A stretch of 20,000 nt of DNA from an uncultured virus (IMG/VR IMGVR_UViG_3300009378_001140) (lineage: Duplodnaviria > Heunggongvirae > Uroviricota > Caudoviricetes). A model generated the notes under the pieces. That model made no database searches. It was not told the origin of the DNA and saw only the letters and a program-made list of their open reading frames with translations. The DNA lies in the IMG/VR virus record IMGVR_UViG_3300009378_001140; one strand, given 5' to 3'. The position numbers were made by a program, and so were the translations under genes. Shown here in pieces: positions 1 through 12,223 of this stretch (position 1 is the stretch's first letter; each line of letters begins with the position of its first letter).

Positions 1-232
1 CTGAGCTCTTGACGTGATTAACTATATCGTCTCCGCTCTCAACTATTATAGCCTTCAACATTCCACCATTATGCGTTGTTATATCTCCGCTTGCATACCT
101 ATCATCTAACTTTGGCTTAAACGATAGAACAGTTTTATTCTGATACCTGAATCTATCAACTGCGCCTAACAGTCTCGTTGTCTTTGATCCAAACATTGGT
201 CCTGTAAATATTATAAACTCAGGCGATCTCAC
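1..232 (-). CDS. tdk: Thymidine kinase (TK1/type II family), N-terminal 77 aa; runs off the window
   Basis: Not in the ORF track. Manual translation from GTG at 232 (GTGA overlap with the cupin stop) gives MRSPEFIIFTGPMFGSKTTRLLGAVDRFRYQNKTVLSFKPKLDDRYASGDITTHNG..., matching the TK motifs GPMFxxKT, KPxxDxRY and I-x-T/S-H-x-G. Confidence 0.9.
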   Translation of the reverse strand, partial: MRSPEFIIFTGPMFGSKTTRLLGAVDRFRYQNKTVLSFKPKLDDRYASGDITTHNGGMLKAIIVESGDDIVNHVKSS

Positions 233-630
233 TTGCACGTTCTCCCATAGTCATCATCTAGTCTTGTGAATTGACTTTTCTTATTATTTCCTATTTCAAT
301 AATCTCACTATTTTCAATTGCAGTAATTCTATACGGGCTACATGACTGGACGTGCAACACATCACCTGGAAAAAACTCATCAATCACATACGGCCTTTCA
401 TCCTCTTTTGTCAATGTCAATTGATCTCCATGCTGTATTAAAACCTTTCCGCTAAGCACATATAACACCTCATCCTTATGATTATTATATTTTAAACTTG
501 TTCTATTTCCTGCTTCAATGGATAAAATTTTTCCATGAACTCCTGGTAGTGCACTCCAGACAATCTCATAACCCCATGGCTTTTTAACTTTTTCACTGCG
601 TCCTTTCCACGAGCACTTATTCATCTTCAT
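229..630 (-). CDS. Cupin-domain protein, similar to the C-terminal cupin of type II mannose-6-phosphate isomerase
   Basis: Pattern KPWG...KILxIxxG...SL...K-x-E-x-x-YVLSG...RLDDDYGR. The start may be ATG 624, which is better spaced from GGAG. Confidence 0.75.
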   Translation of the reverse strand: MKMNKCSWKGRSEKVKKPWGYEIVWSALPGVHGKILSIEAGNRTSLKYNNHKDEVLYVLSGKVLIQHGDQLTLTKEDERPYVIDEFFPGDVLHVQSCSPYRITAIENSEIIEIGNNKKSQFTRLDDDYGRTCK

Positions 631-1621
631 TTACTCCCCACCACCTAAGTGTTCTCTCAAGACCTTCCCAAAATCTCACTTGCACCTCATACCCGAGATC
701 TCGCTGAACCTTAGAGATGTCTGCCTGTGTATGCATTACATCTCCAGGACGCCACGGAGCGTGTCTAACAACAGCATGACTAAACCTATTAGTAAAAAAG
801 TCAAGAACTTCCTTGTTAGATGTCCTATCTCCACACGATACATTATATGCACTTCCTAAAAATGACTTGTTAGATGTTGCTGCTAAGACGTTTGCCTCAA
901 CTGCATTGTCAACATAGCACATGTCTCTTGACTGACTTCCATCACCGTCACTTCTTAGCGGGAGACCATTTTTAATTGCATTACACCACGCTGATATCGC
1001 TGTGGAGTATGGTGAATCTCCATACTGTCCTGGCCCGAATACATTAAAGTATCTTAAACACACGATGTCAAGATCATAAAGGTCGCCAAATAGCCTTGCA
1101 GCATCCTCTATTGCACTTTTTTGCCAGGCATATGGTGACTTAGGTGATTTTTGTGTTTCCTCTCCTGTAGGAAGAACTTCTGCGCCGCCATAGACTGACG
1201 ATGATGATGCCCACACGACACGGTCGACGTTATTCACGCATGCCTCAAAGAGCCTAATAGTCCCTGCTATATTTACATCAGTTGTCAGCGATGGATTTTC
1301 AACTGAATATGATACCCTTGGAATCGCTGCCTGATGAAATACCACATCATACATTTTTTCTGATATGTTCCTAATGATCTCCTTATGAGAAAAATCTCCC
1401 TGTATCACGAGAACTGCCTTATCATCTCTATCTGTTACAGCACTGTAAAAATTTTGCAATAAATCTACAGGAACAACTCTCATGGCTACACCTTCAAGCA
1501 ATTCAAGATGTCCATTTGACATATCATCAACTACATCAACCTTCCAGCCATCACTCACAAGACGCTTTGTTAGATTTGATCCAATAAATCCGCAACCTCC
1601 GGTCACTAAAGCTCTTTTCAT
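617..1621 (-). CDS. NAD-dependent NDP-sugar epimerase/dehydratase (extended SDR, UDP-glucose/UDP-GlcNAc 4-epimerase-like)
   Basis: TGGCGFIGS Rossmann motif, HQAA, SSSSVYG, catalytic YAWQK (YxxxK), LRYFNVFGP, GDGSQSRD. ATG at 1621 with GGAG upstream is preferred over the track start 1651. Confidence 0.9.
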   Translation of the reverse strand: MKRALVTGGCGFIGSNLTKRLVSDGWKVDVVDDMSNGHLELLEGVAMRVVPVDLLQNFYSAVTDRDDKAVLVIQGDFSHKEIIRNISEKMYDVVFHQAAIPRVSYSVENPSLTTDVNIAGTIRLFEACVNNVDRVVWASSSSVYGGAEVLPTGEETQKSPKSPYAWQKSAIEDAARLFGDLYDLDIVCLRYFNVFGPGQYGDSPYSTAISAWCNAIKNGLPLRSDGDGSQSRDMCYVDNAVEANVLAATSNKSFLGSAYNVSCGDRTSNKEVLDFFTNRFSHAVVRHAPWRPGDVMHTQADISKVQRDLGYEVQVRFWEGLERTLRWWGVNEDE

Positions 1622-1643
1622 CTTTTCTCCATTCTCATTAATT

Positions 1644-2555
1644 TTACTCAATTATGTGCGCAGAGTTTAAATTCATTCTAATTCTCGCAGATGTACAATT
1701 TACACCAATTCTTTTCCAACATTCCGACGCAAGATAGTAAAGAAACCTTAAGTCGTGTTCAAACAGCCTGACAACATCGCATGATCTTATCACACAATGA
1801 AAATCCATTATTTTATTTCTCTGACTAACTTGAATAAATGATATACAAGAATCATCAGTGTATACAAACCTTCTAGAAAAAATATCTTCCTTTCTCAGAT
1901 ACTCATTTTCTCCTGACATCTCTGATTCTATCTTTTTAAGAAGTGCTAAGAATATCTTTATGTAGTATTCTGACTCTGGCTCAAATTCTAAACTTTTTGG
2001 TGTTGCTTCCCTAAATTCTCCGTCGTCATGCAGTGTCAGCTGGAGCGGGAAGACCTCACTCCTCTCTGTCTGTCTTACAACCTTAGCTACAATACCTGCA
2101 ACATCTTTGAGCTGAAATTTTTCATGTGACGTTAATTCATCTATAACATGATCAGCTATATCATTTATTGGTGAGCTTTCAGATGTTATTCTTACAGCTA
2201 ACGGATGATCATTTAAACGCTTAAACTCTTTTTTAAACGACCTATGAACAGACTTTAAAGATCTAGCGTCGTGGATCTCATCTCCTCTCTTTTCAAATCT
2301 CTTCTTTATTACCCTAAACGGCAGATCGATGATAACATACCTGTTATTTAAATTGTACATCTCTCTGTGTAGATGGTCTTCCATATAGTCAATAGACCTA
2401 CCATACATCTCTGAAAACACCTTTCTAGATAGCTGTGATCTATCCATGAGGTGCCACCGATACCCAGTTTTTTTATGAATCTCCCGAATCAGAGACGTCT
2501 TTCCTGAACAGTCTGGACCCTCTACAAATATTGTATGTGCTGGAAATGATAACAC
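1644..2555 (-). CDS. Fusion: N-terminal dNMP (thymidylate-type) kinase + C-terminal thymidylate-synthase/dCMP-hydroxymethylase-like domain
   Basis: N-terminus VEGPDCSGKTS P-loop, DRS and RGDE lid. C-terminus SRR, C237-x4-Q, R257-S-C-D260-x7-D268 and terminal SAH(300). The GTG start overlaps the dnaE stop (TAGTG). Confidence 0.75.
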   Translation of the reverse strand: MLSFPAHTIFVEGPDCSGKTSLIREIHKKTGYRWHLMDRSQLSRKVFSEMYGRSIDYMEDHLHREMYNLNNRYVIIDLPFRVIKKRFEKRGDEIHDARSLKSVHRSFKKEFKRLNDHPLAVRITSESSPINDIADHVIDELTSHEKFQLKDVAGIVAKVVRQTERSEVFPLQLTLHDDGEFREATPKSLEFEPESEYYIKIFLALLKKIESEMSGENEYLRKEDIFSRRFVYTDDSCISFIQVSQRNKIMDFHCVIRSCDVVRLFEHDLRFLYYLASECWKRIGVNCTSARIRMNLNSAHIIE

Positions 2556-5500
2556 TATGCCACGTTCACCTGTTTCATCTTATATGACGACGTAGAACAC
2601 CCCCACGATTCACTGGACGAAACCTCAGCCAGCCATATTGTGTACAAGCCTGGGACAGTTTTAAACTTCGTCCACACGCGAAGCCAGGCGCTTTCTGAAT
2701 TATTGTCACATACCTTCATTCTATAGAACACCTTTCCATTTTTTGTAGTTCTCTCTTCAATAGATTGAATGCAGAACCATGCAACTGTCTTCTCGCTTCC
2801 ACTCATGCTAACAACTGACTTCACGCCAGACTCATTTATCTTTTTCATAAGCTGTGGAGGAAAAATTAGATCCTCATCTGCACCTGCCATTAGATCAACA
2901 CACATCTCAATTTTTTCAGACCTTGACCAGTCGCTAAGATCGTGACTTTCAAGAATCTTCTCGTTGATAAAGACAGGAACTCGACCTGTATCTTTTATCA
3001 TTCTCTTCACAGCTGTTTTTGTCATACCGTGTCTACCCTTCTTAAGAAGATCATAATTTCCAACAATTATCTCATGAAGCTGTCTATGATTTAAGATCTT
3101 TCCACTTTTCATCTCATCAAGAGATCCAAATGCCTCAACCTTACAAAGTGAATCGAAACACGTCTTATTCATCTTTGAAGGTTTCCACGTTCCTTCATCG
3201 GTAAATAGCATCTGGTCTATGCATGTAAATGGCCTTCGCATCATTATTTCCTGAACTGCTGACTTACCCACACCCTTTATTGCTGTGAGAGGAGGAACAA
3301 ATCCTTCTCGATCATCACTGTAAACCCAGACGTCAGATGATGTATTGATGTCAGGAGGAAGAAACTTATATCCAAGAGATTTTATTTCCGCCATTATCTT
3401 TCCAAACTTTGGTGAGCCGTTCCACGTCTGAAGGCATGTCGCCAGCCACTCTTTTTCATAATATGTGTGAAGCCATGCAGAGTAATATGAGTCAACTGCA
3501 TACGATACAGCGTGACTTGCGTTAAAGCCATATCCTGAGAAATATTCTATTGTCTCATATAGCTTCTCGGCCTTTTCCCTATCCATTCCGCTTAGGTTGA
3601 CTGACCCATCTACAAATTTCTTTCTAAGATCAATTCTTTCCTGAACCTTTGCTGCGTTTGAATCAAGAGATTTCTTTACAAGAGTCTTTCTCATCTTGTC
3701 AGACTCACCTTTATCAAACCCTGCTAGCTTCTGTGCTAACATCATAAACTGCTCTTGAAAACACAGATAGGAATATGTCTTGCCTGTAACCTCCTCTATG
3801 ACAGGATGGTCGTATGATATTTTCTTACCGGCATCAACTTCTTGCTTAGTCTTTACATACTTCTTATCGACCTTTGCTGCTAAAGGTCCTGGACGATATA
3901 TTGCGGTAATTGTAGCAAGATCATCAATCGATCGTGGCTTTGCATTTTGACAAAACTTTCTTGCACCAGAATTTACAAACTGAAAGATTTGAACGAATCG
4001 CCCACCATGATACACATATTCCCACACCCTTTGATCATCCATGTCATGATATCTGCTGTTTAAGTGATCATCAAAGAACTTATTTATCTGATCGAATGAA
4101 GGATTTTCAACACCTTTCTTTCTTAAAACTAGCCTAATGGTGTCCTCCACCATCTTCAATGTCGCAAGACCAAGAAAGTCAAACTTTAGAAATCCATTCT
4201 CTTCTAGATGCCTAAAGTTCATTCCTTCAGACCACGGTGTCTGCAACTCACCTCTGACTTTGACTATCGGCATGTGGGTCTCAAGATCAGGACACACCAA
4301 GACGCCGCCAGCGTGTCTGCCAATAGACCTCAACTCCATAAATAGTGTTTGAACATGCTCAGAAACCTTAGGGTATTTTTTCATAAACTTCTGGTATGGT
4401 TCACTATATTTCATGCAATCCTCATGAGTCAAAACATATGTTGATTTTTCCTCGTGGTCTCCCATAGCACGAGGCATCACCTCTCTTTCTAAAGGGTTTG
4501 TGAGCTTATTGACTTCATCAAATGGAATCCCGTAAAACTTAGACACATCTTTGATCAATGATTTGAGTTTTAATGTATTAAAATTTGATACAGGAATTAC
4601 AGAATCGTCTCCAAAGAGCTCTCTTGACACATCGATTAAAACATCTCGATCTCCGACGTCTGTATCAATATCAGGCCAGCTTGCTTTATGAAGACCCAAA
4701 AATCTCTCAAAGAGAAGATTATACTTTATTGGATCAACATGAGTTATTCCTAAGACATAATTAACAAGACTACCCGCACCTGATCCCCTTCCCGGACCTA
4801 TCAGGGTTTGATTCTTAGCCTTATCAAACACTTTAGTTAAGGTTAAAAAGTAGTTTTCAAACCCTAGTTCTTTAATGACAGAAAGCTCTTCTTTGACCCT
4901 GACGAGATATTCAGGCTTCTCATGAAGGTCTGACTTTATCATTCCTTCCTTTACCTGATCAACTAATTGTCCGAATGCTGACCTTTGGGGTGTTGTAAAG
5001 TCTGGAAGTTTTGCGCTGTTACCGTCAAACCAAACCTCATCACACATATCCCACGCAATGCCATAGGTTCTCCCAATTGAATCCTTTACTGTGTTCTCAT
5101 GACCGCGATAGAAGTCATATTGATCATAGCCTTTCTTAAATGACTCCCACATCTGTTGAGCATTCTTTGGGTATAGCTCGCACTTTAGCTCACTCTTCTC
5201 TGGAAGTTTTGGCATCTCATCATCTCTAGATCCCATTCTTCCTAAAATTTTATACATCTCTCGTGCCTCCCACATCTCAGGCCTGCAATAATGTGAGTCA
5301 GCAGTTGAGATAAGCGGGATACCAGTTTTATCTGACAGCTCTAGAAGACATCGATTTGTAAGGTGTTGTGCGACAAGATCGTTAAATTGCAACTCTAAAA
5401 AGAAATTTTCTCTGCCAACAGCATCAACAAATCTATCAGTCATGTTCTCAAGCTTTCTCATCACTGACTTGAGAACATAGGGATCATCAACTAATCCTGG

Positions 5501-6157
5501 TGATAGCTCATCAAATTGCTTATCTGGAAATTCCTGGAATATGTGACCTGATGCTCGGCCTCCCACACATGCTGTAGATACAATAAGCCCATCAGAATTT
5601 TCCTTTAGCATCTTGAAGTCAATCCTTGGAAATCTATAAAACCCTTCCTTATATGACATCTTAATAAGCCTAAAAAGATTTTGGAGACCTTTGAAATTTT
5701 TCGCTATAACAACAAGATGATATCTCCTCTTCCACTCTGGGTATTCACCTCTATCTTTCTTTGTCTCATTTTCATTTTCAACAATGAGACCCTCACTTTC
5801 GTCTCCGTCATCTACAGAGATCTTTCTTTTGGTCTCTCTCTCAAGCCTAACCCTCTCACGATGCTTATTGTAGTCATTTCTCCATTCTGATAGATCATCA
5901 ACGAAATAGCACTCACATCCGTATATGTGCCTATACTGCTTCCCTTTTGTCTTTAGCTTCTTTGCATAGTTATGCGCATGAGCTGCTGAATTCATGTGAC
6001 CGTGATTTGTTAAGGCTAGAGAATTCATTCCGTTCTCAAGAATGAAATCGATGTGCTCATTAGGATAGCCTAGACCGTCATAGACACTTGATCCATCATG
6101 TGCATGTAATCCGACAAATCGTCTGGGCGGAGAAATTTTATTAATTGACATTAGCAT
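2555..6157 (-). CDS. dnaE: DNA polymerase III alpha subunit (family C, DnaE-type)
   Basis: PHP motifs LHAH...DG, LTNHG, GCE, STAC, DSHY; GRGSGAGSL; catalytic PDIDTD; RHAGG; KFDFLGL; YGFNASHA; HhH IKGVG. Confidence 0.96.
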   Translation of the reverse strand: MLMSINKISPPRRFVGLHAHDGSSVYDGLGYPNEHIDFILENGMNSLALTNHGHMNSAAHAHNYAKKLKTKGKQYRHIYGCECYFVDDLSEWRNDYNKHRERVRLERETKRKISVDDGDESEGLIVENENETKKDRGEYPEWKRRYHLVVIAKNFKGLQNLFRLIKMSYKEGFYRFPRIDFKMLKENSDGLIVSTACVGGRASGHIFQEFPDKQFDELSPGLVDDPYVLKSVMRKLENMTDRFVDAVGRENFFLELQFNDLVAQHLTNRCLLELSDKTGIPLISTADSHYCRPEMWEAREMYKILGRMGSRDDEMPKLPEKSELKCELYPKNAQQMWESFKKGYDQYDFYRGHENTVKDSIGRTYGIAWDMCDEVWFDGNSAKLPDFTTPQRSAFGQLVDQVKEGMIKSDLHEKPEYLVRVKEELSVIKELGFENYFLTLTKVFDKAKNQTLIGPGRGSGAGSLVNYVLGITHVDPIKYNLLFERFLGLHKASWPDIDTDVGDRDVLIDVSRELFGDDSVIPVSNFNTLKLKSLIKDVSKFYGIPFDEVNKLTNPLEREVMPRAMGDHEEKSTYVLTHEDCMKYSEPYQKFMKKYPKVSEHVQTLFMELRSIGRHAGGVLVCPDLETHMPIVKVRGELQTPWSEGMNFRHLEENGFLKFDFLGLATLKMVEDTIRLVLRKKGVENPSFDQINKFFDDHLNSRYHDMDDQRVWEYVYHGGRFVQIFQFVNSGARKFCQNAKPRSIDDLATITAIYRPGPLAAKVDKKYVKTKQEVDAGKKISYDHPVIEEVTGKTYSYLCFQEQFMMLAQKLAGFDKGESDKMRKTLVKKSLDSNAAKVQERIDLRKKFVDGSVNLSGMDREKAEKLYETIEYFSGYGFNASHAVSYAVDSYYSAWLHTYYEKEWLATCLQTWNGSPKFGKIMAEIKSLGYKFLPPDINTSSDVWVYSDDREGFVPPLTAIKGVGKSAVQEIMMRRPFTCIDQMLFTDEGTWKPSKMNKTCFDSLCKVEAFGSLDEMKSGKILNHRQLHEIIVGNYDLLKKGRHGMTKTAVKRMIKDTGRVPVFINEKILESHDLSDWSRSEKIEMCVDLMAGADEDLIFPPQLMKKINESGVKSVVSMSGSEKTVAWFCIQSIEERTTKNGKVFYRMKVCDNNSESAWLRVWTKFKTVPGLYTIWLAEVSSSESWGCSTSSYKMKQVNVA

Positions 6158-6224: not shown

Positions 6225-8090
6225 TTAGTCAACCTCTTCATACTCTGCTTCAGAGAAGTCATCGCTTTCATGAGATGTCTCTTCATTTTTTGATGCATTC
6301 TCATACATTTCCCTTCCGGCATTTTGAGATACCTCTTCAAGCTTCTCAAGAGCGCTTAAGAGAGCCTCTCTGTCATCCCCAGACAACGCATCCTTGGCAT
6401 CAGCAACTGCAGACGTAATATCAGCAAGAGTCTGATCTGATATCTGCCCACCTGAATCCTTTGTCATTTTTTCAACCTGATAGACTAGACTGTCGCATCT
6501 ATTTCTATCTTCTACGTCTTTCTTTCTAATTGCATCTTCCTCTTCATGTTGCTTTGCATCATTAATCATTCTTTCAATATCGTCATCAGACAGTGATCCT
6601 TTACCCTCTATTCTAATAGACTGATTTTTTCCTGTCGCCTTGTCTTTTGCTGAAACACTAACAATTCCGTTTGCATCGATATCAAATGTAACCTCGATCT
6701 GCGGGATCCCTCTCGGTGCGACTGGTATGCCGTCTAGCCTAAACCTTCCAAGACTCTTGTTGTTCTTTGCAAACTGCCTTTCACCCTGAAGAACATGAAT
6801 ATCAACAGACGTCTGACCATCAGCTGCTGTGCTAAATGTCTCATTTTTTGAACACGGTATTGTTGAATTTCTATCAATTAGCCTAGTCATAACACCGCCC
6901 AGAGTCTCAATTCCAAGAGACAAAGGTGTTACATCTAGCAAGAGAACATCGTGAACATCACCTGAGAATACCCCTCCTTGAACTGCTGCACCTAATGCGA
7001 CAACTTCATCAGGATTTACAGAGCTGTTAGACTTTTTGTCAAAGAGCTTCTCAACTGCAGACTTAACTGCAGGGATTCTTGTTGATCCGCCTACGAGTAT
7101 TACCTCATCAATGTCACCAACATTTAGCCCTGCATCCTTTAGGGCTCTCTTTGTAGGCTTCAGCGTTCTTTCAACAAATGACTCAATCATCTGTTCAAAT
7201 TTTGACCTTAGAAGCTCAACTTGAAGATGTTTTGGCCCTGTTGAATCTGCTGTTAAAAATGGCAAGTTTACCTCTGTTTTTTGGGTGCTGGAAAGCTCTA
7301 TTTTTGCCTTTTCAGATGCATCTTTTAGTCGCTGTAAGACCATCTTATCTCCGCTGACGTCGATACCTGTTTTGTTCTTAAACTCTTCAATCAGCCATGA
7401 TATTAATATCTGATCAACATCGTCGCCGCCTAGTCGAGTATCTCCATTTGTGCTAAGCACCTCAACAACGCCTTCTGCTATTTCAAGAATTGATATGTCA
7501 AATGTTCCACCTCCGAGATCAAATACAGCAATTTTTTGATCCTTTTTTTTGTCAAATCCATACGCTAATGCTGCAGCCGTCGGCTCATTAATAATTCTCT
7601 TTACATCAAGACCAGCAATCTGCCCAGCATCCTTTGTGGCCTGCCTTTGATCATCGTTAAAATATGCAGGAACAGTTACTACTGCTTCATTTATCTCACA
7701 TCCAAAATATGACTCAGCTGACCTTTTCAACTTTAAAAGAATCTGTGCACTTATCTCCTGTGGCGTATACTTCTTATCATCTATCTTTACGCTACATAGC
7801 TCACCCTCACCTGAGACAACATTGTACGGCACATTCTTAATATCATCTTTTGAATCTGAAAATCTCGCCCCCATGAACCTCTTGATAGAAAATACTGTGT
7901 TTTCTGGATTAACAACGGCCTGTCTTCTGGCAGGATCACCTACAAGCCTCTCACCCTCCTTTGTAAATGCAACAACAGAAGGTGTTGTTCTGCTTCCTTC
8001 TTCGTTTGTAATTATCTTTGGTGTATCACCCTCTATGACTGAAGCGCAACTATTTGTTGTGCCCAAATCAATTCCTAGTACTTTTCCCAT
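6225..8090 (-). CDS. dnaK: Hsp70 chaperone DnaK
   Basis: [48 protein letters not shown], linker [21 protein letters not shown] upstream. Confidence 0.98.
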
Positions 8091-8165
8091 TTTTATCTCC
8101 TAGATTTGTTTTATCGGAATTTTCCTATCATAAATGTAGACACGATTTTATAAGAGGAAACCCTT

Positions 8166-9212
8166 TTATTGATTTTTTTGTCTTATTTTTTCAAGCTTTT
8201 CAATTAAAGACCGTTCTTCTTCACTTATCTCTTTTGGAATGTCAATTTTAACATGAGCATAATGATCTCCCGGACTCATGTCCCCCCTTATCATTCCCAA
8301 TCCACATAGTGAAAATACATCTTTTTCCCTTGTTCCTGCAGGTATGTTAAATGTAACATCACCGTGGAGTGTCTCTATTCTAATACTGTCTCCTAAAACT
8401 GCCTGACCATAAGATATCAAAACATTTCCATGAATGTCATTCATCTCTCTTTCAAACTTCTCATGGGGCATGACATCAACTCTCACTATCAAATCTCCAA
8501 AAATATTTGAAGCGGGATGGCAATGTCCCATTTTTGAAATCCTTAGCATCTCTCCTGACATTATCCCCTTAGGAATTTTAATATTAATAGACTTACTCTC
8601 AGCAGTCCTTCCTGCACCACTGCACATCGAACAATGTTTAATTACCTTTTTTCCACTTCCACCACAAGATGAACATGTCATTGAAATGTTTAAAAATGCA
8701 GCTTTATGATGAACCTTTCCAGATCCCTTACAAGAGCCGCACTCTTGTAGATCATTAGAATTTTCAATTCCCTCGCCGAGACATCTACTACACTGAATGC
8801 CTCTCTCAAACATGATGTTTCTTTCTGTTCCTGAAAATGCATCTCTTAAAGAGACGTTGATTCCTATGTGTAAATTTTCACCCTGTTGTGGTGGAGGTCG
8901 AGTTCCTTGTCTTTGCTGGTTGAAGAAGTTGTTGTCAAACCCTCTGAATCCAGAAAAAAAACTTTCAAATATGTCGTTTGGATTACCAGAAAATGAAAAA
9001 TTATGAAGACCTCCTGAATCGTATTCGCTTCTTTTCTCTTTGTTCGAGAGAACCTCATATGCCTCAGTCGCTTCCTTGAACTTTTCTTCTGCGTCTTTGT
9101 CTTCCCTGTTTCTATCTGGATGATACTGTAATGCTAGCTTTCTATATGACTTCTTTATATCATCGACGCTTGCGTCTTTTTTTACACCTAGTATTTTATA
9201 GTAGTCTTTCAC
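8166..9212 (-). CDS. dnaJ: Class A J-domain chaperone DnaJ
   Basis: DYYKILGV...HPD J-domain, G/F-rich region, four CxxCxGxG repeats, C-terminal substrate domains. GTG start overlaps the upstream TGA. Confidence 0.95.
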
Positions 9213-9382
9213 GTCTTTTGTAGTTTCTTATCAGCTATAGCTATGTGTGCCTTACAATACTCATGATCACTGTTGCATGTGTTTGCTCGACAGGGTTTAT
9301 CACTATAGTATCCACCGCAGCACTTGCTAAAAAATGCTTTATTCCACAGCCTGACTCTTTCTTCCCTATTCAATTGTCCCAT
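9209..9382 (-). CDS. Small (57 aa) CCCH zinc-finger protein
   Basis: From ATG 9382: [46 protein letters not shown]..., a C-x-G-x6-C-x11-C-x2-H pattern. It fills the gap between NDT and dnaJ, and its stop overlaps the dnaJ start (GTGA). Confidence 0.6.
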
Positions 9383-9806
9383 AGTACGGCTCAAAAATGA
9401 GCTCTCCTTTTTTGCTACACCTGAAAAGATAGTCGTCAAGCTCATCAAATGTCGTACAAACCTTGATTCCACTTTGAGATAACATCAGATTGAACGGCGC
9501 GCCTTCGGGTAGCCCAGCACAGAAATACACGATCGGAGTATCTGACTGATATGCTACTCCCGCCTCAAAGATGCTACCCATATCTTTATCTCTGGTGTTG
9601 CACAGCACAAAATCATTTCCCAGTATGTGTTCAACATTACCGTCAAACGTTTCACGTTGTGTATTAAGATCAGCAGTTGGCGGGCAGATGAAAAAATCCT
9701 TTGGAGAGAAATACTCAAATGAATGTTTTGTTAACAATTCCTTTATTGTTTCTACCTCCTCATATGCAGTGGGTGTAAACCATGAGCTAGCAATATACGC
9801 CTTCAT
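9366..9806 (-). CDS. Nucleoside 2-deoxyribosyltransferase / (d)NMP N-glycosidase family protein (NDT/MilB/DNPH1 superfamily)
   Basis: YIASSWF, FSP, DMGSIFEAG (DxGxxxExG with catalytic Glu) and FNLML motifs. Coupled to the ThyX stop by TAATG; GGAG RBS. Confidence 0.85.
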   Translation of the reverse strand: MKAYIASSWFTPTAYEEVETIKELLTKHSFEYFSPKDFFICPPTADLNTQRETFDGNVEHILGNDFVLCNTRDKDMGSIFEAGVAYQSDTPIVYFCAGLPEGAPFNLMLSQSGIKVCTTFDELDDYLFRCSKKGELIFEPYYGTIE

Positions 9807-10792
9807 TATTCATTCTCCTTTATAAGATTATATTCAGCTTCAAGAGCGCTGATCTCACTCAAGATCTCGCGCCATATCTGTCTAAATTTTGTGTTTCCAG
9901 CTGACTCCTCATCAGGTGGATTCGTTCCATTGAGGTCAGATCTAAGAGCTTGATAGATCGTGTCGTTGGGGTGATACTCAACATGATCGTCGCTATCACT
10001 GTCAGGCCAGTACAGATTTGTTCCAGTTCCTGATCGAACATTCTTTACATAATGCCACGCCGGACTAGTTAGCGTTTTTGTTCCAATGACAGTGCTAGCC
10101 TCTGGTAACACCTTGATCACCTCTAACGCCATCTTCGCTGCGATCAGATTATCTGCAGCCGGCTGGATCTGCTTGTCAGCGCGCTGCTTGACAAAGCCTA
10201 TGATATCCTTGAGGTTGAACCTACCATAATAGAATGTTGACAGGCACTTAGGAAGAACTGTTCTAGCGTCCATCATAGAGATCTGCTTCGTGTCAACCAT
10301 GTCAGCGTAGAGCTGCTTTGCATCCTCAACATGACGCTTCCACCGACGATACATCTCTGGACTATTCTCAACAGATGATGGAACCAGGCATGGCTCGTGG
10401 TGAAGAAATCTGTCACCTGTACATTGAGCTGCGTACGATCCTGCCCTGTGCCTGATAAGATGTGTTACGGTTTGAAGGTCAATTCCTGCAAACTTAAACG
10501 TGAAGCTAAAGATCTCCATGGGCGTTGGTAATGCCCTGAAATTTAGCACATCTTCTAGGTTCTCGCTTAACTCATGTCTTGTAGCGCTGTCTGGATCTGA
10601 CATCTCTGGGCTATCTGCCCACGTCGCCTTGACATATCTCCACGCTGTATCTCTCATCTGCTCAGCGGTCGGGTGGTCAACAAGCTCAATTTGAAGAGCA
10701 TCGAGATCATTTAAAAATTCTGTTGTTGGATCCTCATTGAATCTCAGGGACATCGGTAGGGTTACGGGGTCAAGATCTTTATTTTGCGGCAC
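9806..10792 (-). CDS. Divergent flavin-dependent thymidylate synthase (ThyX-like)
   Basis: TPME-x-x-x-FTF, HLIRHRAGSY, DARTVLP, FNL...F...R-A-D-x-x-x-Q. Several canonical residues are altered (see findings). Confidence 0.8.
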   Translation of the reverse strand: MPQNKDLDPVTLPMSLRFNEDPTTEFLNDLDALQIELVDHPTAEQMRDTAWRYVKATWADSPEMSDPDSATRHELSENLEDVLNFRALPTPMEIFSFTFKFAGIDLQTVTHLIRHRAGSYAAQCTGDRFLHHEPCLVPSSVENSPEMYRRWKRHVEDAKQLYADMVDTKQISMMDARTVLPKCLSTFYYGRFNLKDIIGFVKQRADKQIQPAADNLIAAKMALEVIKVLPEASTVIGTKTLTSPAWHYVKNVRSGTGTNLYWPDSDSDDHVEYHPNDTIYQALRSDLNGTNPPDEESAGNTKFRQIWREILSEISALEAEYNLIKENE

Positions 10793-10793
10793 T

Positions 10794-11765
10794 TCATCTT
10801 TCCTTTTTTGTTAAGCTGTGCACTAGATCATATACCGAATTAACATCCGTGTACATGGTGACATCTGAAACTTTTTTAAGCTCCTGATTATATGACATCT
10901 CAGGTGATAAAACCTTAACGCCATGCTTAGCATACTCACTCGCATGCTTGGCTGAGTCATCTATCGCACACACAACACCGTCAGCATCGTAGAAATCCTT
11001 CTGAACAAGCCATCTAAACTTTTCTGGTGAAAAATCAAGGTGATGAAACTTTAATCCTGCGTGCTCAAGCCAGAAATATGTGTCATAGAGACAAAGAAGG
11101 TTATCGCTTGGCCTCGCTGTGATGATCTGAATCCAGTACCCTTCGTCATGTAACCTGTTCAAGACATCTATCATCTCACGATTTCTTGTGATGTGACGTA
11201 GCTTTCTCTCCTCAATGAACTCCTGAAACACCGCCTCTGGAAGAAGACCCGCTGCCTTTACCTCCTTTGAGGAGTAATATTCTGTTGAGTCATCAGGAAC
11301 GATCACACCCTTTCTTTCCTTTAGCCACTTTGTGAAATACCCTCTAAACTCATTTAACACATCGTCCATGTCAACGAGAAGGACAGGTTGACCATCCCAC
11401 TTATTCTTTTCCATCCTGTGGCGGGCGTGTAAGTAAAGATCCTTGTCCCAAAATGCGCCAATGAAGTCAGAGGGTTCAAACTCCCACATGTTCATCATTG
11501 CAAGAAGATATCGAAATGCGTCGACTGACTTATAGAGGATCTTGACCTTGTCGATGTCATGCTTGACCAATCGATGATCTTTAAAATTAACAGATGTCGC
11601 AAGCCCTGTCGCCTCTGCGTGAATCGCAAGGGCAAATGACTTGGTCATCTCCTCCTTCTGTCGATCGCTCATCTCATTCTTGTCAAAAAACAGAGATGAA
11701 AACTCATCCTGTCGATTAAACATCTTAAGAAATGTCGTGCTATGCTTTGTGTCGTCACTGCTCAT
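10794..11765 (-). CDS. Fusion: degenerate all-alpha NTP-pyrophosphatase domain + HAD 5'(3')-deoxyribonucleotidase-like domain
   Basis: N-terminus RQDEF...ALAIHAEATGL...FKDHR...SVDAFRYLL resembles dimeric dUTPase/MazG helices. C-terminus has HAD motifs LLVDMDDVL, ITARP, K, IDDS. Confidence 0.75.
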   Translation of the reverse strand: MSSDDTKHSTTFLKMFNRQDEFSSLFFDKNEMSDRQKEEMTKSFALAIHAEATGLATSVNFKDHRLVKHDIDKVKILYKSVDAFRYLLAMMNMWEFEPSDFIGAFWDKDLYLHARHRMEKNKWDGQPVLLVDMDDVLNEFRGYFTKWLKERKGVIVPDDSTEYYSSKEVKAAGLLPEAVFQEFIEERKLRHITRNREMIDVLNRLHDEGYWIQIITARPSDNLLCLYDTYFWLEHAGLKFHHLDFSPEKFRWLVQKDFYDADGVVCAIDDSAKHASEYAKHGVKVLSPEMSYNQELKKVSDVTMYTDVNSVYDLVHSLTKKER

Positions 11766-11857: not shown

Positions 11858-12223
11858 TTAATAGCCGCCGAGAATTCTCTTTACGTTTACCTCACCCTTT
11901 GACATGTATGTGTCAAAAAGCTCATCAGACGAGATACCTGAACAGATCACTATGCCAAAGAAATAGTGAAGCACATCACACAATTCCTCGACATAGGCCT
12001 CTCGATCAAACTCTGTCACCTCAGTCGCTCTGTGATACTTGCTATTTTTAAGAAGAATATTTGACTCAAACAGCTCACCCATACACTCATATGCTAGCAT
12101 TCTAAGAAACTGCTGTGATTTCTTTTCTGTGATTTCAAGCGGAACATCTGGGTGAGATCTATGTTCTTGCATGAGAGATATAAACTCTTCTTGCTGTTCA
12201 TACATCTTTTTTAGTCTATCCAT
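11858..12223 (-). CDS. All-alpha dNTP pyrophosphatase (dimeric dUTPase/dCTPase/MazG superfamily)
   Basis: MYEQQ, GELFES (ExxE), K-x-H-R, EELCDVLHYF (EExxD), Y-x-x-K-x-x-VN-x-x-R-x-x-x-GY C-terminus. Confidence 0.85.
   Translation of the reverse strand: MDRLKKMYEQQEEFISLMQEHRSHPDVPLEITEKKSQQFLRMLAYECMGELFESNILLKNSKYHRATEVTEFDREAYVEELCDVLHYFFGIVICSGISSDELFDTYMSKGEVNVKRILGGY

Follow-up and report, generated by a model that had tools for sequence, protein, structure and literature searches.

Why would a phage join a nucleotide kinase to a much shortened relative of thymidylate synthase (TS) in one protein, and on which nucleotide might such a protein act? The gene that raises this question lies in a window of 20,000 nucleotides, the whole stretch of DNA analysed, from an uncultured virus of the Caudoviricetes, a marine giant phage (IMG/VR record IMGVR_UViG_3300009378_001140). 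To our knowledge, TS-fold enzymes are the entry point of every known pre-replicative C5 modification of phage pyrimidines, these being methyl, hydroxymethyl and, from 2025-26 on, hydroxyl. New C5 chemistries have each brought further anti-restriction biology to light, and reagents as well.

The original prediction, made from the sequence alone, described the gene as a dNMP kinase fused to a minimal TS-fold domain (here the mini-TS), which might modify dCMP and channel the product to its own kinase. The observation itself, a kinase and a TS-type domain in one gene, is confirmed, and the interpretation is supported in part, with dCMP modification and the transfer to the kinase as its predicted elements. 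The analysis suggests that the fusion is an undescribed step toward an altered cytosine building block for phage DNA.

The fusion gene and its parts

The gene, its two domains and their motifs have the following window positions.

1644..2555, minus strand: whole gene, 303 aa, fusion of kinase and mini-TS; full-length homologues found
2115..2555, minus strand: N-terminal P-loop kinase domain, aa 1-147, with the YorR/dTMP-kinase/deoxynucleoside-kinase fold
2496..2519, minus strand: P-loop GPDCSGKT, aa 13-20; G13, D15, G18 and K19 invariant in the full-length alignment
2436..2444, minus strand: DRS motif, aa 38-40; D38 and R39 invariant in the full-length alignment; aligns to DR of YorR
2280..2300, minus strand: RFEKRGD, aa 86-92, a lid-like Arg-rich segment; R86, R90, G91 and D92 invariant; aligns to RLRVRGDE of YorR
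1647..2114, minus strand: C-terminal minimal thymidylate-synthase-fold domain, aa 148-303
1962..1976, minus strand: ESEYY, aa 194-198; E194 and Y198 invariant in the family, unfused forms included
1869..1877, minus strand: SRR, aa 227-229; R228 in 188/188 and R229 in 186/188 relatives; aligns to SRR of gp42, gp48 and ThyA
1845..1847, minus strand: Cys237, position of the catalytic nucleophile (E. coli C146, T4 C148); 187/188
1776..1787, minus strand: RSCD, aa 257-260, equivalent to E. coli R166-S167-C168-D169; R257 and S258 each 187/188
1752..1754, minus strand: Asp268, equivalent to E. coli N177 and T4 D179, the cytosine versus uracil selector; 188/188
1656..1667, minus strand: NSAH, aa 297-300, equivalent to GDTH of ThyA and VSAH of gp48; S298 183/188, H300 184/188

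The GTG start of the gene overlaps the stop codon of the polymerase gene 5' of it (TAGTG). Kinase and mini-TS are fused in all 79 related loci, each time in a single open reading frame of 289-342 aa, which rules out a gene-calling artefact or a frameshifted pair. The full-length alignment contains 59 of the 120 listed matches, picked for spread. Residue counts for the C-terminal domain refer to 188 fused relatives and to a set of 17 unfused sequences, the alignment of which leaves out P0241 and P0219 (N-terminal extension or fragment start).

A thymidylate synthase fold reduced to its core

The C-terminal domain has the three-dimensional fold of the TS superfamily, as the original prediction had proposed. 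Standard family models detect little of it: PF00303 (ThyA fold) has no match to the window protein at E<=0.01, the PHROG search matches phrog_160 over residues 237-301 only (E 0.0075), and searches of PDB sequences with the single sequence or a full-length profile match the kinase part only. When a profile of the C-terminal domain is compared by hhalign, it aligns with T4 gp42 (94.9%/4.1e-8), RB69 gp48 (90.8%/1.2e-6), the gp48 family profile (95.7%/8.4e-9) and E. coli ThyA (51.5%/1.5e-4). Run against PDB sequences, the same profile finds T4 dCMP hydroxymethylase (dCH) at 4.1e-4 and AfhB at 0.036, and ThyA is not matched at E<=10. By these profile comparisons, the mini-TS is closer to phage cytosine-type enzymes than to ThyA. 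Chance motif resemblance is ruled out by hhalign, structure alignment and the PDB-sequence profile search. The botulinum neurotoxin chains that appear in that last search at E 0.23-0.24 are chance matches.

The catalytic Cys, the RR pair and the phosphate-site Arg-Ser of the TS superfamily are all present in the mini-TS. Among the 188 fused relatives, C237 is kept in 187, D268 in 188, R228 in 188, R229 in 186, R257 in 187, S258 in 187 and H300 in 184, and all seven are also conserved in 17/17 unfused forms. E194, Y198 and S239 are, like H300, retained in fused and unfused proteins down to ~25% identity. Y198 may be the counterpart of TS Tyr94, the alignment there being weak and off by one. By alignment, SRR contains the Arg pair which in TS enters the phosphate site of the partner subunit. 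This invariant pair and a retained five-stranded sheet suggest that the mini-TS would work as a homodimer. The position of Asp268 has a described role in selecting between cytosine and uracil (PMC13326640 section 24), and the Asp first noticed there occurs without exception in the 188 relatives.

What has been lost is equally consistent. The mini-TS has 156 residues, of which ~142-145 align across ~210-216 residues of TS enzymes (with ThyA, ~140 are matched over residues ~1-210), and its N-terminal half has no confident hhalign alignment to TS homologues. Before the Cys there are 14-16 residues fewer than in gp42 and gp48 and 11 fewer than in ThyA, in agreement with the short RR-to-Cys loop first noticed. 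The elements that enclose folate in TS (helix B/small domain and the C-terminal tail) were looked for by alignment and are absent from the mini-TS, so that the expectation of reduced folate-binding parts also holds. W80 and W83 belong to the helix B/small domain part. The chain does stop soon after the conserved His, 3 residues past His300, as had been pointed out, but this trait is not unique to the mini-TS: RB69 gp48, AfhB and several short phage TS homologues likewise end soon after the His.

Two further positions bear on the chemistry. Position 260, equivalent to E. coli D169, is D in 108, N in 71 and E in 9 of the 188 relatives and switches between these residues at least 26 times on the tree; Asn260 is found, among others, in relatives that share 63-73% identity with the window protein. 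The proposed diagnostic of 5-hydroxy-dCMP synthases is an Asn at this very position (PMC13326640 section 28), and the window protein fails this only published sequence diagnostic because its residue 260 is Asp. The repeated switching argues against classical methylene-folate chemistry; according to the title of PDB entry 1bjg, D221(169)N does not promote opening of the cofactor ring. Position 234, at the L143 position of ThyA, is also variable (D 119, N 24, S 15, E 14, G 9) and is Asp in the window protein. An acidic residue there has been linked to hydroxymethylation, as opposed to methylation, of the product (PMC13326640 section 24).

The kinase domain and its tie to the mini-TS

The N-terminal domain has a dTMP-kinase-like fold, with a P-loop, lid arginines and a DR motif in place. 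Its score lies below every Pfam and NCBIfam kinase cut-off (TIGR00041 gives 19.3 bits against a cut-off of 83; Pfam gives AAA_18/28/33 only, all below cut-off), and an unfused kinase homologue in locus L098 passes PF02223 with 36.9 versus 27 bits. In the fold comparison, YorR, deoxynucleoside kinases and dTMP kinases are tied within ~2 Z units. The label 'dNMP kinase' is looser than first given. NMP kinases and deoxynucleoside kinases cannot be told apart by this fold, so that the kinase step might precede the TS-like step instead of following it. YorR of Bacillus prophage SPbeta (PDB 2axp, 3kb2) is a kinase-fold relative without a fused TS fold; dTMP kinases are not fused to a TS fold either, and are longer than the window domain. 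The DRS motif sits where dTMP kinases have their DR(Y/H) motif.

Mini-TS proteins also exist unfused, with 166-186 aa, and in 6/10 such loci a homologue of the kinase domain lies no more than two genes away. Searches with an HMM of the N-terminal domain place it directly upstream in two of these, L098 (E 3.9e-16) and L099 (6.5e-14). In the other four it is two genes away, on the downstream side in L100 and on the upstream side in L089, L092 and L093 (E 4e-10 to 6.5e-7). The kinase and the mini-TS are a functional pair. In the predicted structure of the fusion, both domains form one rigid body (pTM 0.91). Compared with the L089-type kinases, the fused kinase is ~40 residues shorter in the stretch that runs from the P-loop helix to the DR motif, where the NMP-binding part of such kinases usually lies. 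The same HMM matches RB69 gp45 at E 3.2e-6. In the RB69 cluster, gp45 is the 'nucleotide kinase', and DLP3 and RL38J1 have comparable kinases (PMC13326640, Table 1).

Genomic company and spread

The fusion gene is surrounded in the window by genes for replication, sugar-nucleotide and nucleotide metabolism.

2555..6157, minus strand: DnaE-type DNA polymerase III alpha (Pfam), 1200 aa, upstream of the fusion; on the same strand upstream in 79/79 loci
617..1651, minus strand: NAD-dependent NDP-sugar epimerase/dehydratase, downstream, probable start ATG at 1621; in 53/79 loci, within 300 bp in 31
229..630, minus strand: cupin-fold protein; 24/79 loci
2..238, minus strand: thymidine kinase, cut by the window end; 70/79 loci
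9806..10792, minus strand: divergent ThyX-like protein, 328 aa, a recurrent mini-TS companion
10794..11765, minus strand: NTP-pyrophosphohydrolase-like N-terminus fused to an NT5C/HAD-type nucleotidase
11858..12223, minus strand: dUTPase_2/all-alpha NTP pyrophosphohydrolase-like protein, candidate dCTPase or dUTPase

A dCMP deaminase gene is present in 65/79 loci. The mini-TS has the divergent ThyX-like gene (~330 aa) as its companion in the window, in 5/5 large related genomes and in L098-L100. Canonical ThyX for dTMP is encoded in all five of these genomes (202-284 kb, 70-100% complete), and no other ThyA-family gene is found in them (PF00303, E<=0.01). At the same threshold, PF00303 has no match in the window's own 97-kb record (~32% complete). 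Pfam recognises no glycosyltransferase in that 97-kb record, and GT1-family genes occur in 3/5 related genomes, far from the fusion gene.

The modules that contain unfused mini-TS genes also hold short Asp-type TS homologues, the divergent ThyX paralogue, HAD phosphatases, AfhE/AfhF-like sugar-activation genes and a DNA alpha-glucosyltransferase. HAD/NT5C genes adjoin the unfused mini-TS genes. Unfused mini-TS genes are flanked by a gp42-like TS homologue on one side and on the other by homologues of RB69 gp51 (35% identity, E 7e-16) and gp52/53, and in L090 the DNA alpha-glucosyltransferase gene comes next. As judged from gene content, these modules are of the cytosine-modification type. A longer Asp-type TS homologue lies within ~4 kb of the unfused mini-TS in the five examined loci (L089, L090, L098, L099 and L100); in L089 and L090 it is adjacent and gp42-like (DFMC/MRSND/NND). 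The mini-TS is not the sole candidate modifying enzyme in those loci, and its role there may be a different one.

The family is widespread. The C-domain profile matches 404 cluster representatives at E<=1e-3 among 1.84 billion. A tblastn search with the whole protein against 50,697 phage records matched the kinase part only, in 7 Bacillus phage records, with no full-length relative, and BFVD has no fused form among the 50 matches listed. No printed description of the mini-TS family was found in the literature. The unfused mini-TS, the proximity of the kinase, the module company, the absence of ThyA-family genes and the switching at position 260 are new here.

Likeness to known enzymes

Among the closest known relatives in the TS superfamily are the 5-hydroxy-dCMP synthases. 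Like the mini-TS, they have Asp at the N177 position (D268 in the mini-TS) and a residue that is acidic or polar at the L143 position (D234), and they share the 'SAH' motif and a chain end soon past the His. A YorR/dTMP-kinase-fold 'nucleotide kinase' gene lies two to three genes from theirs, with sugar-nucleotide genes close by, whereas the kinase is fused in the window protein. They are longer, however, with 217-238 residues, and compared with them the mini-TS lacks ~55 residues between the first strand and the Tyr94 equivalent and 16 residues before the Cys. Their diagnostic Asn (E. coli D169N) is not in the window protein and occurs in 71/188 relatives only. Positions ~64-120 of the gp48 family, which are rich in its invariant residues, have no counterpart in the mini-TS, and the deleted stretch may include the flavin site of that family. 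The structure of AfhB, from phage HY126 (PDB 9iqu, 9iqc), is reportedly the subject of a 2026 paper by He et al. in Nat Chem Biol. AfhB, RB69 gp48, DLP3 gp80 and RL38J1 gp216 are flavin/O2-dependent 5-hydroxy-dCMP synthases (PMC13326640, Lee et al., NAR 2026).

T4 gp42, the deoxycytidylate hydroxymethylase (PDB 1b49, 1b5d, 6a9a), is the best sequence-level relative with a solved structure. No gap interrupts the alignment at its Cys, RS-x-D, Asp179 and His, and a hairpin Arg past the Cys (R246) is common to both. In contrast to the mini-TS, gp42 has 246 aa, a complete folate site and ~30 residues past the His, and it relies on a separate dNMP kinase of another family (gp1). MilA, the CMP 5-hydroxymethylase of mildiomycin biosynthesis (PDB 5b6e, 5b6d), differs in being a folate-dependent enzyme of 318 residues from a bacterial antibiotic pathway that uses a ribonucleotide substrate; its Z score differs from those of AfhB and ThyA by ~1-2 at most and is not discriminating.

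A proposed role and its alternatives

The explanation that we tentatively prefer, and regard as possible rather than probable, is a bifunctional enzyme of a pyrimidine module, which would carry out a non-folate C5 modification of dCMP and then phosphorylate the product, feeding the phage's DnaE-type polymerase. From the observed folds, conserved residues, deletions, fusion or adjacency of kinase and mini-TS, and genomic company, we infer dimerisation, substrate, chemistry, order of steps and incorporation into DNA as follows. The mini-TS homodimer would bind a cytosine 5'-mononucleotide, most likely dCMP, with its phosphate held by Arg228/Arg229 of the partner subunit and by Arg257/Ser258. Asp268 would read N3/N4 of the cytosine, and His300/Ser298 would hold the sugar. 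Addition of Cys237 to C6 would then render C5 nucleophilic. Because the parts that enclose methylene-tetrahydrofolate are lost and the Asp169 equivalent drifts freely (D, N or E), folate is most likely not the carrier of the electrophile. A flavin hydroperoxide, loosely bound, is the leading candidate and would yield 5-hydroxy-dCMP, the product of AfhB and RB69 gp48; some other small electrophile may serve instead. The YorR/dTMP-kinase-like domain would phosphorylate the altered dCMP to the diphosphate, for entry into DNA. Several observations weigh against this explanation: the Asp260 of the window protein, the deletion of the stretch that may include the flavin site of the gp48 family, the longer Asp-type TS homologues near unfused mini-TS genes, the lack of a recognised glycosyltransferase in the 97-kb record with GT1-family genes of related genomes far away, and a kinase fold that leaves the order of the two steps ambiguous.

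Several other explanations account for parts of the evidence. The longer cytosine-type TS homologue close to the unfused mini-TS in 5/5 examined loci, and the divergent ThyX-like gene in the window, the five large genomes and L098-L100, would suit a second-step enzyme or partner subunit, which acts on a nucleotide pre-modified by the short Asp-type TS homologue or the ThyX paralogue, or forms a heteromer with such an enzyme. The ~40 residues missing at the usual NMP-binding place of the fused kinase agree with this too, as the substrate may be presented by the TS-like domain. One possible variant is that 5-hydroxymethyl-dCMP is re-activated by Cys addition and its 5-substituent exchanged, with the kinase phosphorylating the substituent or the nucleotide; we know of no precedent for such an exchange by a TS fold, which counts against it. 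Since the 5 large fused-type genomes have no other ThyA-family gene, a ThyA-type partner is not general, and the mini-TS keeps all the residues for independent nucleotide binding and Cys attack, leaving a second-step role rather unlikely. Harder to credit is that the mini-TS, though minimal, still depends on folate and acts as a dCMP hydroxymethylase or methylase of the T4 gp42 or XP12 type, with the fused kinase handling its product. T4 dCMP hydroxymethylase is indeed the best solved relative (E 4.1e-4; hhalign 94.9%), and the window protein has Asp260 (E. coli D169) and Asp234 at the L143 position. However, the small domain and C-terminal tail that enclose folate are gone, Asn260 occurs in 71/188 relatives (some 63-73% identical), position 234 varies as given above, and PF00303 is unmatched at E<=0.01.

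The loss of cofactor-binding parts could also mean that the TS-like domain has no catalytic role and serves as a cytidylate sensor, by which the kinase is regulated or localised, perhaps in a replication-coupled dNTP-synthesising complex. Tight coupling to the polymerase gene (the TAGTG overlap; 79/79 loci) and the modelling of both domains as one rigid body would fit such a sensor. Yet a pure binding module would be expected to lose the Cys, which is kept in 187/188 fused and 17/17 unfused proteins, as are E194, Y198, S239 and H300, and the mini-TS also occurs as separate genes. The purely regulatory cytidylate-binding domain that the original prediction offered as an alternative is less likely because this nucleophilic Cys is kept, and we consider a sensor distinctly doubtful. 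Ordinary thymidylate metabolism, with a degenerate thymidylate synthase and a dTMP kinase converting dUMP to dTDP, is very improbable: weak PHROG and NCBIfam labels ('thymidylate kinase', 'thymidylate synthase') and nearby thymidine kinase and dCMP deaminase genes suggest it, but the selector is Asp, not Asn, in 188/188 relatives, the folate parts are absent, and canonical ThyX is already encoded in 5/5 related genomes.

Possible implications for phage DNA modification

Beyond the preferred reading of a non-folate dCMP-modifying fusion lies a bolder one, to which we give a low likelihood. The mini-TS would represent a new catalytic class of the TS superfamily, a 156-residue nucleotide-activating core without a cofactor pocket of its own, which with the kinase (possibly in a composite active site) and the divergent ThyX paralogue would make a cytosine derivative not yet described.

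The mini-TS family indicates the extent to which the TS fold can shrink and yet keep all that is needed for attack on cytosine. It is widespread, tied to the replicative polymerase gene, and the sole ThyA-fold protein in the related genomes checked. Its link with the kinase suggests a role for the unexplained 'nucleotide kinases' of the RB69, DLP3 and RL38J1 cytosine-modification clusters. Should the enzyme make a new base, there would be consequences for the sequencing, restriction and quantification of marine viral DNA; and if the mini-TS is indeed a new catalytic class, hundreds of marine giant phages would replicate with a novel modified cytosine.

The fusion gene and its source genome

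The protein studied here joins an N-terminal P-loop kinase domain (aa 1-147) to a minimal thymidylate synthase (TS)-fold domain, the mini-TS (aa 148-303).

Window 1644-2555, - strand: kinase/mini-TS fusion, open frame of 303 codons

Its GTG start overlaps the TAG stop of a 1200-aa DnaE-type DNA polymerase III alpha gene by one base (TAGTG, window 2553-2557, - strand), which suggests translational coupling of the two genes. Fusion homologues share a Met start at the same position and conserved first residues, and the long (303-codon) form is therefore genuine. In the database, the same protein (P0002) is called 36 residues late, at 267 aa, with the P-loop lost.

The IMG/VR record carrying the window is 97 kb long at an estimated 32% completeness, and is thus a fragment of a giant phage. 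It also encodes DnaK, DnaJ, GroEL, a sigma factor, GreA, ClpP, ribonucleotide reductase, and many nucleotide enzymes. Full-length DnaK (621 aa, HSP70 E 4.6e-251) and DnaJ lie between the nucleotide genes and the polymerase (window 6225-9212, - strand); GroEL, a sigma-70 factor, GreA, and ClpP lie elsewhere in the record (G000:C1 about 63.9-65.5 kb and 66.6-67.4 kb). Two further genes have no evident phage role: one for a superoxide-dismutase-like protein (G000:C1 about 48.2-48.9 kb; L085:12159-12866), which matches Pfam in its C-terminal domain only and has a homologous cluster in 51 of the 79 related loci, and one for a pterin-4a-carbinolamine dehydratase homologue (G000:C1 about 53.2-53.6 kb; L085:17225-17620). 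A 996-aa ORF (window 15184-18174, - strand) matched no Pfam or PHROG family at the thresholds used.

Distribution and genomic neighbours

A word-indexed search returned 148 relatives at E<=1e-3, nearly all about 300 aa long and on contigs of up to 280 kb, many bearing Tara source labels. An IMG/VR scan gave 106 confirmed stretches, from which 79 distinct loci were kept, and in all 79 a single ORF of 289-342 aa spans both domains. No full-length relative occurs among 50,697 cultured phage records, and no fused form among the 50 BFVD matches listed. Neither the fusion nor a TS fold of about 160 residues is described in the full-text literature covered (most subscription journals lie outside its scope) or mentioned in passages of the jumbo-phage survey PMC7824862.

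Neighbouring genes in the fetched flanks of the 79 loci
Polymerase III alpha, upstream, same strand: 79/79
Thymidine kinase: 70/79
dCMP deaminase: 65/79
NDP-sugar epimerase/dehydratase: 53/79, 31 within 300 bp
DHH/DHHA1 phosphoesterase: 46/79
Nucleoside deoxyribosyltransferase: 30/79
Divergent ThyX-like gene: 26/79
Cupin: 24/79

A search for PF00303 at E<=0.01 gave nothing in the window's own record or in five related genomes (202-284 kb, 70-100% complete). All five large genomes carry two ThyX-family genes, one canonical (E 1e-47 to 1e-52) and one divergent (E about 1e-19 to 1e-20), which spans 327-351 codons and resembles window 9806-10792. Consequently, ThyX accounts for dTMP synthesis, leaving the mini-TS as the sole protein with a ThyA fold in the genomes checked. 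Three neighbours in the window are as follows.

Window 617-1651, - strand: epimerase, with a listed TTG start at 1651 that overlaps the end of the fusion
Window 9806-10792, - strand: divergent ThyX-like protein, 328 aa (Thy1 E 1.3e-17, under the thyX equivalog cut-off)
Window 10794-11765, - strand: NTP-pyrophosphohydrolase-like N-terminus (phrog_173, residues 6-112) fused to an NT5C/HAD-type 5'-nucleotidase, 323 aa

The likelier epimerase start is the ATG at 1621, with GGAG ahead of it and a canonical MKRALVTGGCGFIGS Rossmann start. The 323-aa fusion might take a dNTP to the nucleoside within one protein. The operon-like run also holds a nucleoside 2-deoxyribosyltransferase (window 9366-9806, - strand) and a thymidine kinase (window 2-238, - strand), and the phage seems to put resources into salvaging deoxynucleosides beside de novo routes.

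A reduced thymidylate synthase fold

The motifs on which the original prediction of a TS-type domain was built are all present at the residues it named. A profile of the C-terminal part (A2; 61 sequences, all from the window or the fetched loci) aligned to the dCMP hydroxymethylase T4 gp42 with an hhalign probability of 94.9% (E 4.1e-8, 83 columns), pairing SRR with the gp42 Arg pair, C237 with C148, R257-S258 with R168-S169, D268 with D179, and H300 with H216. The alignment bears out the ungapped Cys-to-Asp spacing proposed relative to gp42. Probabilities were 90.8% (E 1.2e-6) against RB69 gp48, a 5-hydroxy-dCMP synthase, 95.7% (E 8.4e-9) against a 28-sequence gp48 family profile, and 51.5% (E 1.5e-4) against E. 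coli ThyA. Among all PDB sequences, the best match of the A2 profile was T4 dCMP hydroxymethylase (E 4.1e-4), followed by the 5-hydroxy-dCMP synthase AfhB (E 0.036), and ThyA was absent at E<=10.

AlphaFold2 modelled the whole fusion, from a 59-sequence full-length family alignment, with pLDDT 95.6 and pTM 0.91, and the C-terminal domain alone with pLDDT 97.5. A Foldseek search of the PDB ranked AfhB top (E 1.1e-7) among 375 matches at E<=1e-3. These models and matches establish the TS fold. The lean toward cytosine-specific members is clearer in the sequence profiles than in structure, where the preference is small (about 1-2 Z units).

The mini-TS keeps five strands and four helices and, aligned to ThyA, matches about 140 residues over a span of about 1-210. 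The loop between the RR strand and the Cys is indeed short, lacking 11 residues relative to ThyA, 14 relative to gp42, and 16 relative to gp48. The chain does end just past the His, as predicted, by three residues, but this is no special feature: RB69 gp48 and AfhB stop about 14 residues past it, and several short phage TS homologues stop right at it. Secondary structure and one weak alignment place the other missing residues, tentatively, between the first strand and the E194/Y198 helix, a segment that corresponds in TS enzymes to helix B and the small domain.

Residue conservation

Conservation was scored over the query, 72 distinct ORFs from the loci, and 115 database proteins, 188 different family members in all. 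R228 and D268 are invariant (188/188); C237, R246, R257, S258, and E194 are kept in 187, R229 and Y197 in 186, Y198 in 185, S239 and H300 in 184, S298 in 183, and E167 in 181.

The position of E. coli D169 is variable, with Asp in 108 members, Asn in 71, and Glu in 9. On a FastTree tree rooted at the midpoint, it has changed 26 times or more, and it differs already in relatives 63-73% identical to the window protein. According to its PDB title (1bjg), the D169N mutant of TS fails to open the imidazolidine ring of folate. The free exchange of Asp, Asn, and Glu here argues against the family relying on the classical activation of methylene-folate. Asn at this position has been proposed by Lee et al. 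(PMC13326640) as diagnostic of 5-hydroxy-dCMP synthases; the window protein, with Asp, therefore fails this published diagnostic.

Unfused forms and the kinase link

When the A2 profile was run exhaustively against 1.84 billion cluster representatives, 404 proteins scored E<=1e-3; of these, 169 reached E<=1e-10 and 77 reached E<=1e-30. The best 150 of the 404 include complete unfused mini-TS proteins of 166-186 aa, with a Met start and an end at or just past the His. Of 19 that were fetched, one was set aside for an N-terminal extension and one for a fragment start; in the remaining 17, aligned as A3, the Glu and Tyr counterparts of E194 and Y198 are retained, as are the first Arg, Cys-x-Ser, R246, Arg-Ser, the Asp, and Ser-x-His. 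A2 and A3 match with an hhalign probability of 99.8% (E 2e-30). The mini-TS is thus a domain family in its own right. Its unfused genes occur in two contexts.

Unfused mini-TS genes: L089:5950-6495, L090:1960-2499, L092:3845-4384, L093:5944-6486
Short Asp-type TS homologues: L098:2039-2785, L099:2207-2863, L100:4471-5115

Loci L089-L093 are T4-like, with a clamp-loader gene in L090. Their order is a 189-aa P-loop kinase, a 223-aa PF00303 gp42-type TS homologue (motifs DFMC, MRSND, and NND), a mini-TS of about 180 aa, a HAD phosphatase (35% identity to RB69 gp51, E 7e-16), and an NTP-transferase/APH-kinase fusion related to RB69 gp53 (E 5e-5) and gp52 (E 4e-7), which PMC13326640 gives as AfhE/AfhF analogues of the arabinosyl-cytosine pathway. 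In L090, a DNA alpha-glucosyltransferase comes next, and a C5 DNA methylase is present as well. The mini-TS of these T4-like contigs appears to be an additional, so far undescribed part of clusters for cytosine hypermodification.

Loci L098-L100 hold a dUTPase_2-like NTPase, a short Asp-type TS homologue (214-248 aa), a divergent ThyX-like gene, an NT5C/HAD nucleotidase, a kinase, the mini-TS, dCMP deaminase, and the polymerase. In size, the short homologues fall between gp42/gp48 and the mini-TS; they carry Asp at the N177 position and T/N-R-Q in place of SRR, and their C-terminus lies at or just past the His.

An HMM of the fusion's kinase domain matched neighbours in six of ten unfused loci: directly upstream of the mini-TS with a 13-nt overlap in L098 (E 3.9e-16) and L099 (E 6.5e-14), two genes downstream in L100 (E 4.7e-14), and two genes upstream in L089 (E 4.3e-10), L093 (E 1.9e-8), and L092 (E 6.5e-7). 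It had no match in L101, L102, L091, where the sequence ends just upstream of the mini-TS, or L090, where about 1.3 kb with three small ORFs precedes the TS homologue. The HMM also matches RB69 gp45 (E 3.2e-6), which is the RB69 cluster's 'nucleotide kinase'. In Table 1 of Lee et al. (PMC13326640), DLP3 gp78 (top hit YorR 3kb2) and RL38J1 gp214 appear next to their 5-hydroxy-dCMP synthases, and the text of that paper says no more about them. From the neighbouring kinases and the gp45 match, it follows that the kinase and TS-fold protein are a recurring pair, fused in the window's lineage.

A possible role in cytosine modification

The mini-TS keeps the residues with which TS enzymes grip a 5'-mononucleotide across a dimer interface, recognise cytosine, add Cys to C6, and handle C5, whereas the parts enclosing folate are lost. 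On these grounds, we take it to be a putative catalytic, non-folate C5-modifying enzyme. Most likely it would modify dCMP at C5 with a non-folate electrophile, and flavin/O2 hydroxylation of the AfhB type would be the nearest precedent. Several points weigh against this reading: the Asp at the diagnostic D169 position, a flavin site that may fall within the deleted region, and the absence of any recognised glycosyltransferase near the fusion.

The actual modifying enzyme could, speculatively, be the divergent ThyX paralogue, a candidate flavin-dependent pyrimidine-modifying enzyme, whose gene adjoins the short Asp-type TS homologues in L098 and L099; equally speculatively, this paralogue could be a flavin reductase. 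Also against the C5-modifying reading, in the five loci examined the unfused mini-TS has a longer TS homologue of Asp type for company, and may thus act in a second step or as a partner; moreover, the kinase fold fits NMP kinases and nucleoside kinases alike.

In T4, nucleotides are cleared from the pool and replaced. The dUTPase_2-like and MazG-like NTPases, NT5C/HAD nucleotidases, and dCMP deaminase would, by analogy, fit such clearing and replacement. With the mini-TS as a C5-modifying enzyme, the kinase domain would commit the modified product to the dNTP pool, feeding the polymerase encoded directly upstream.
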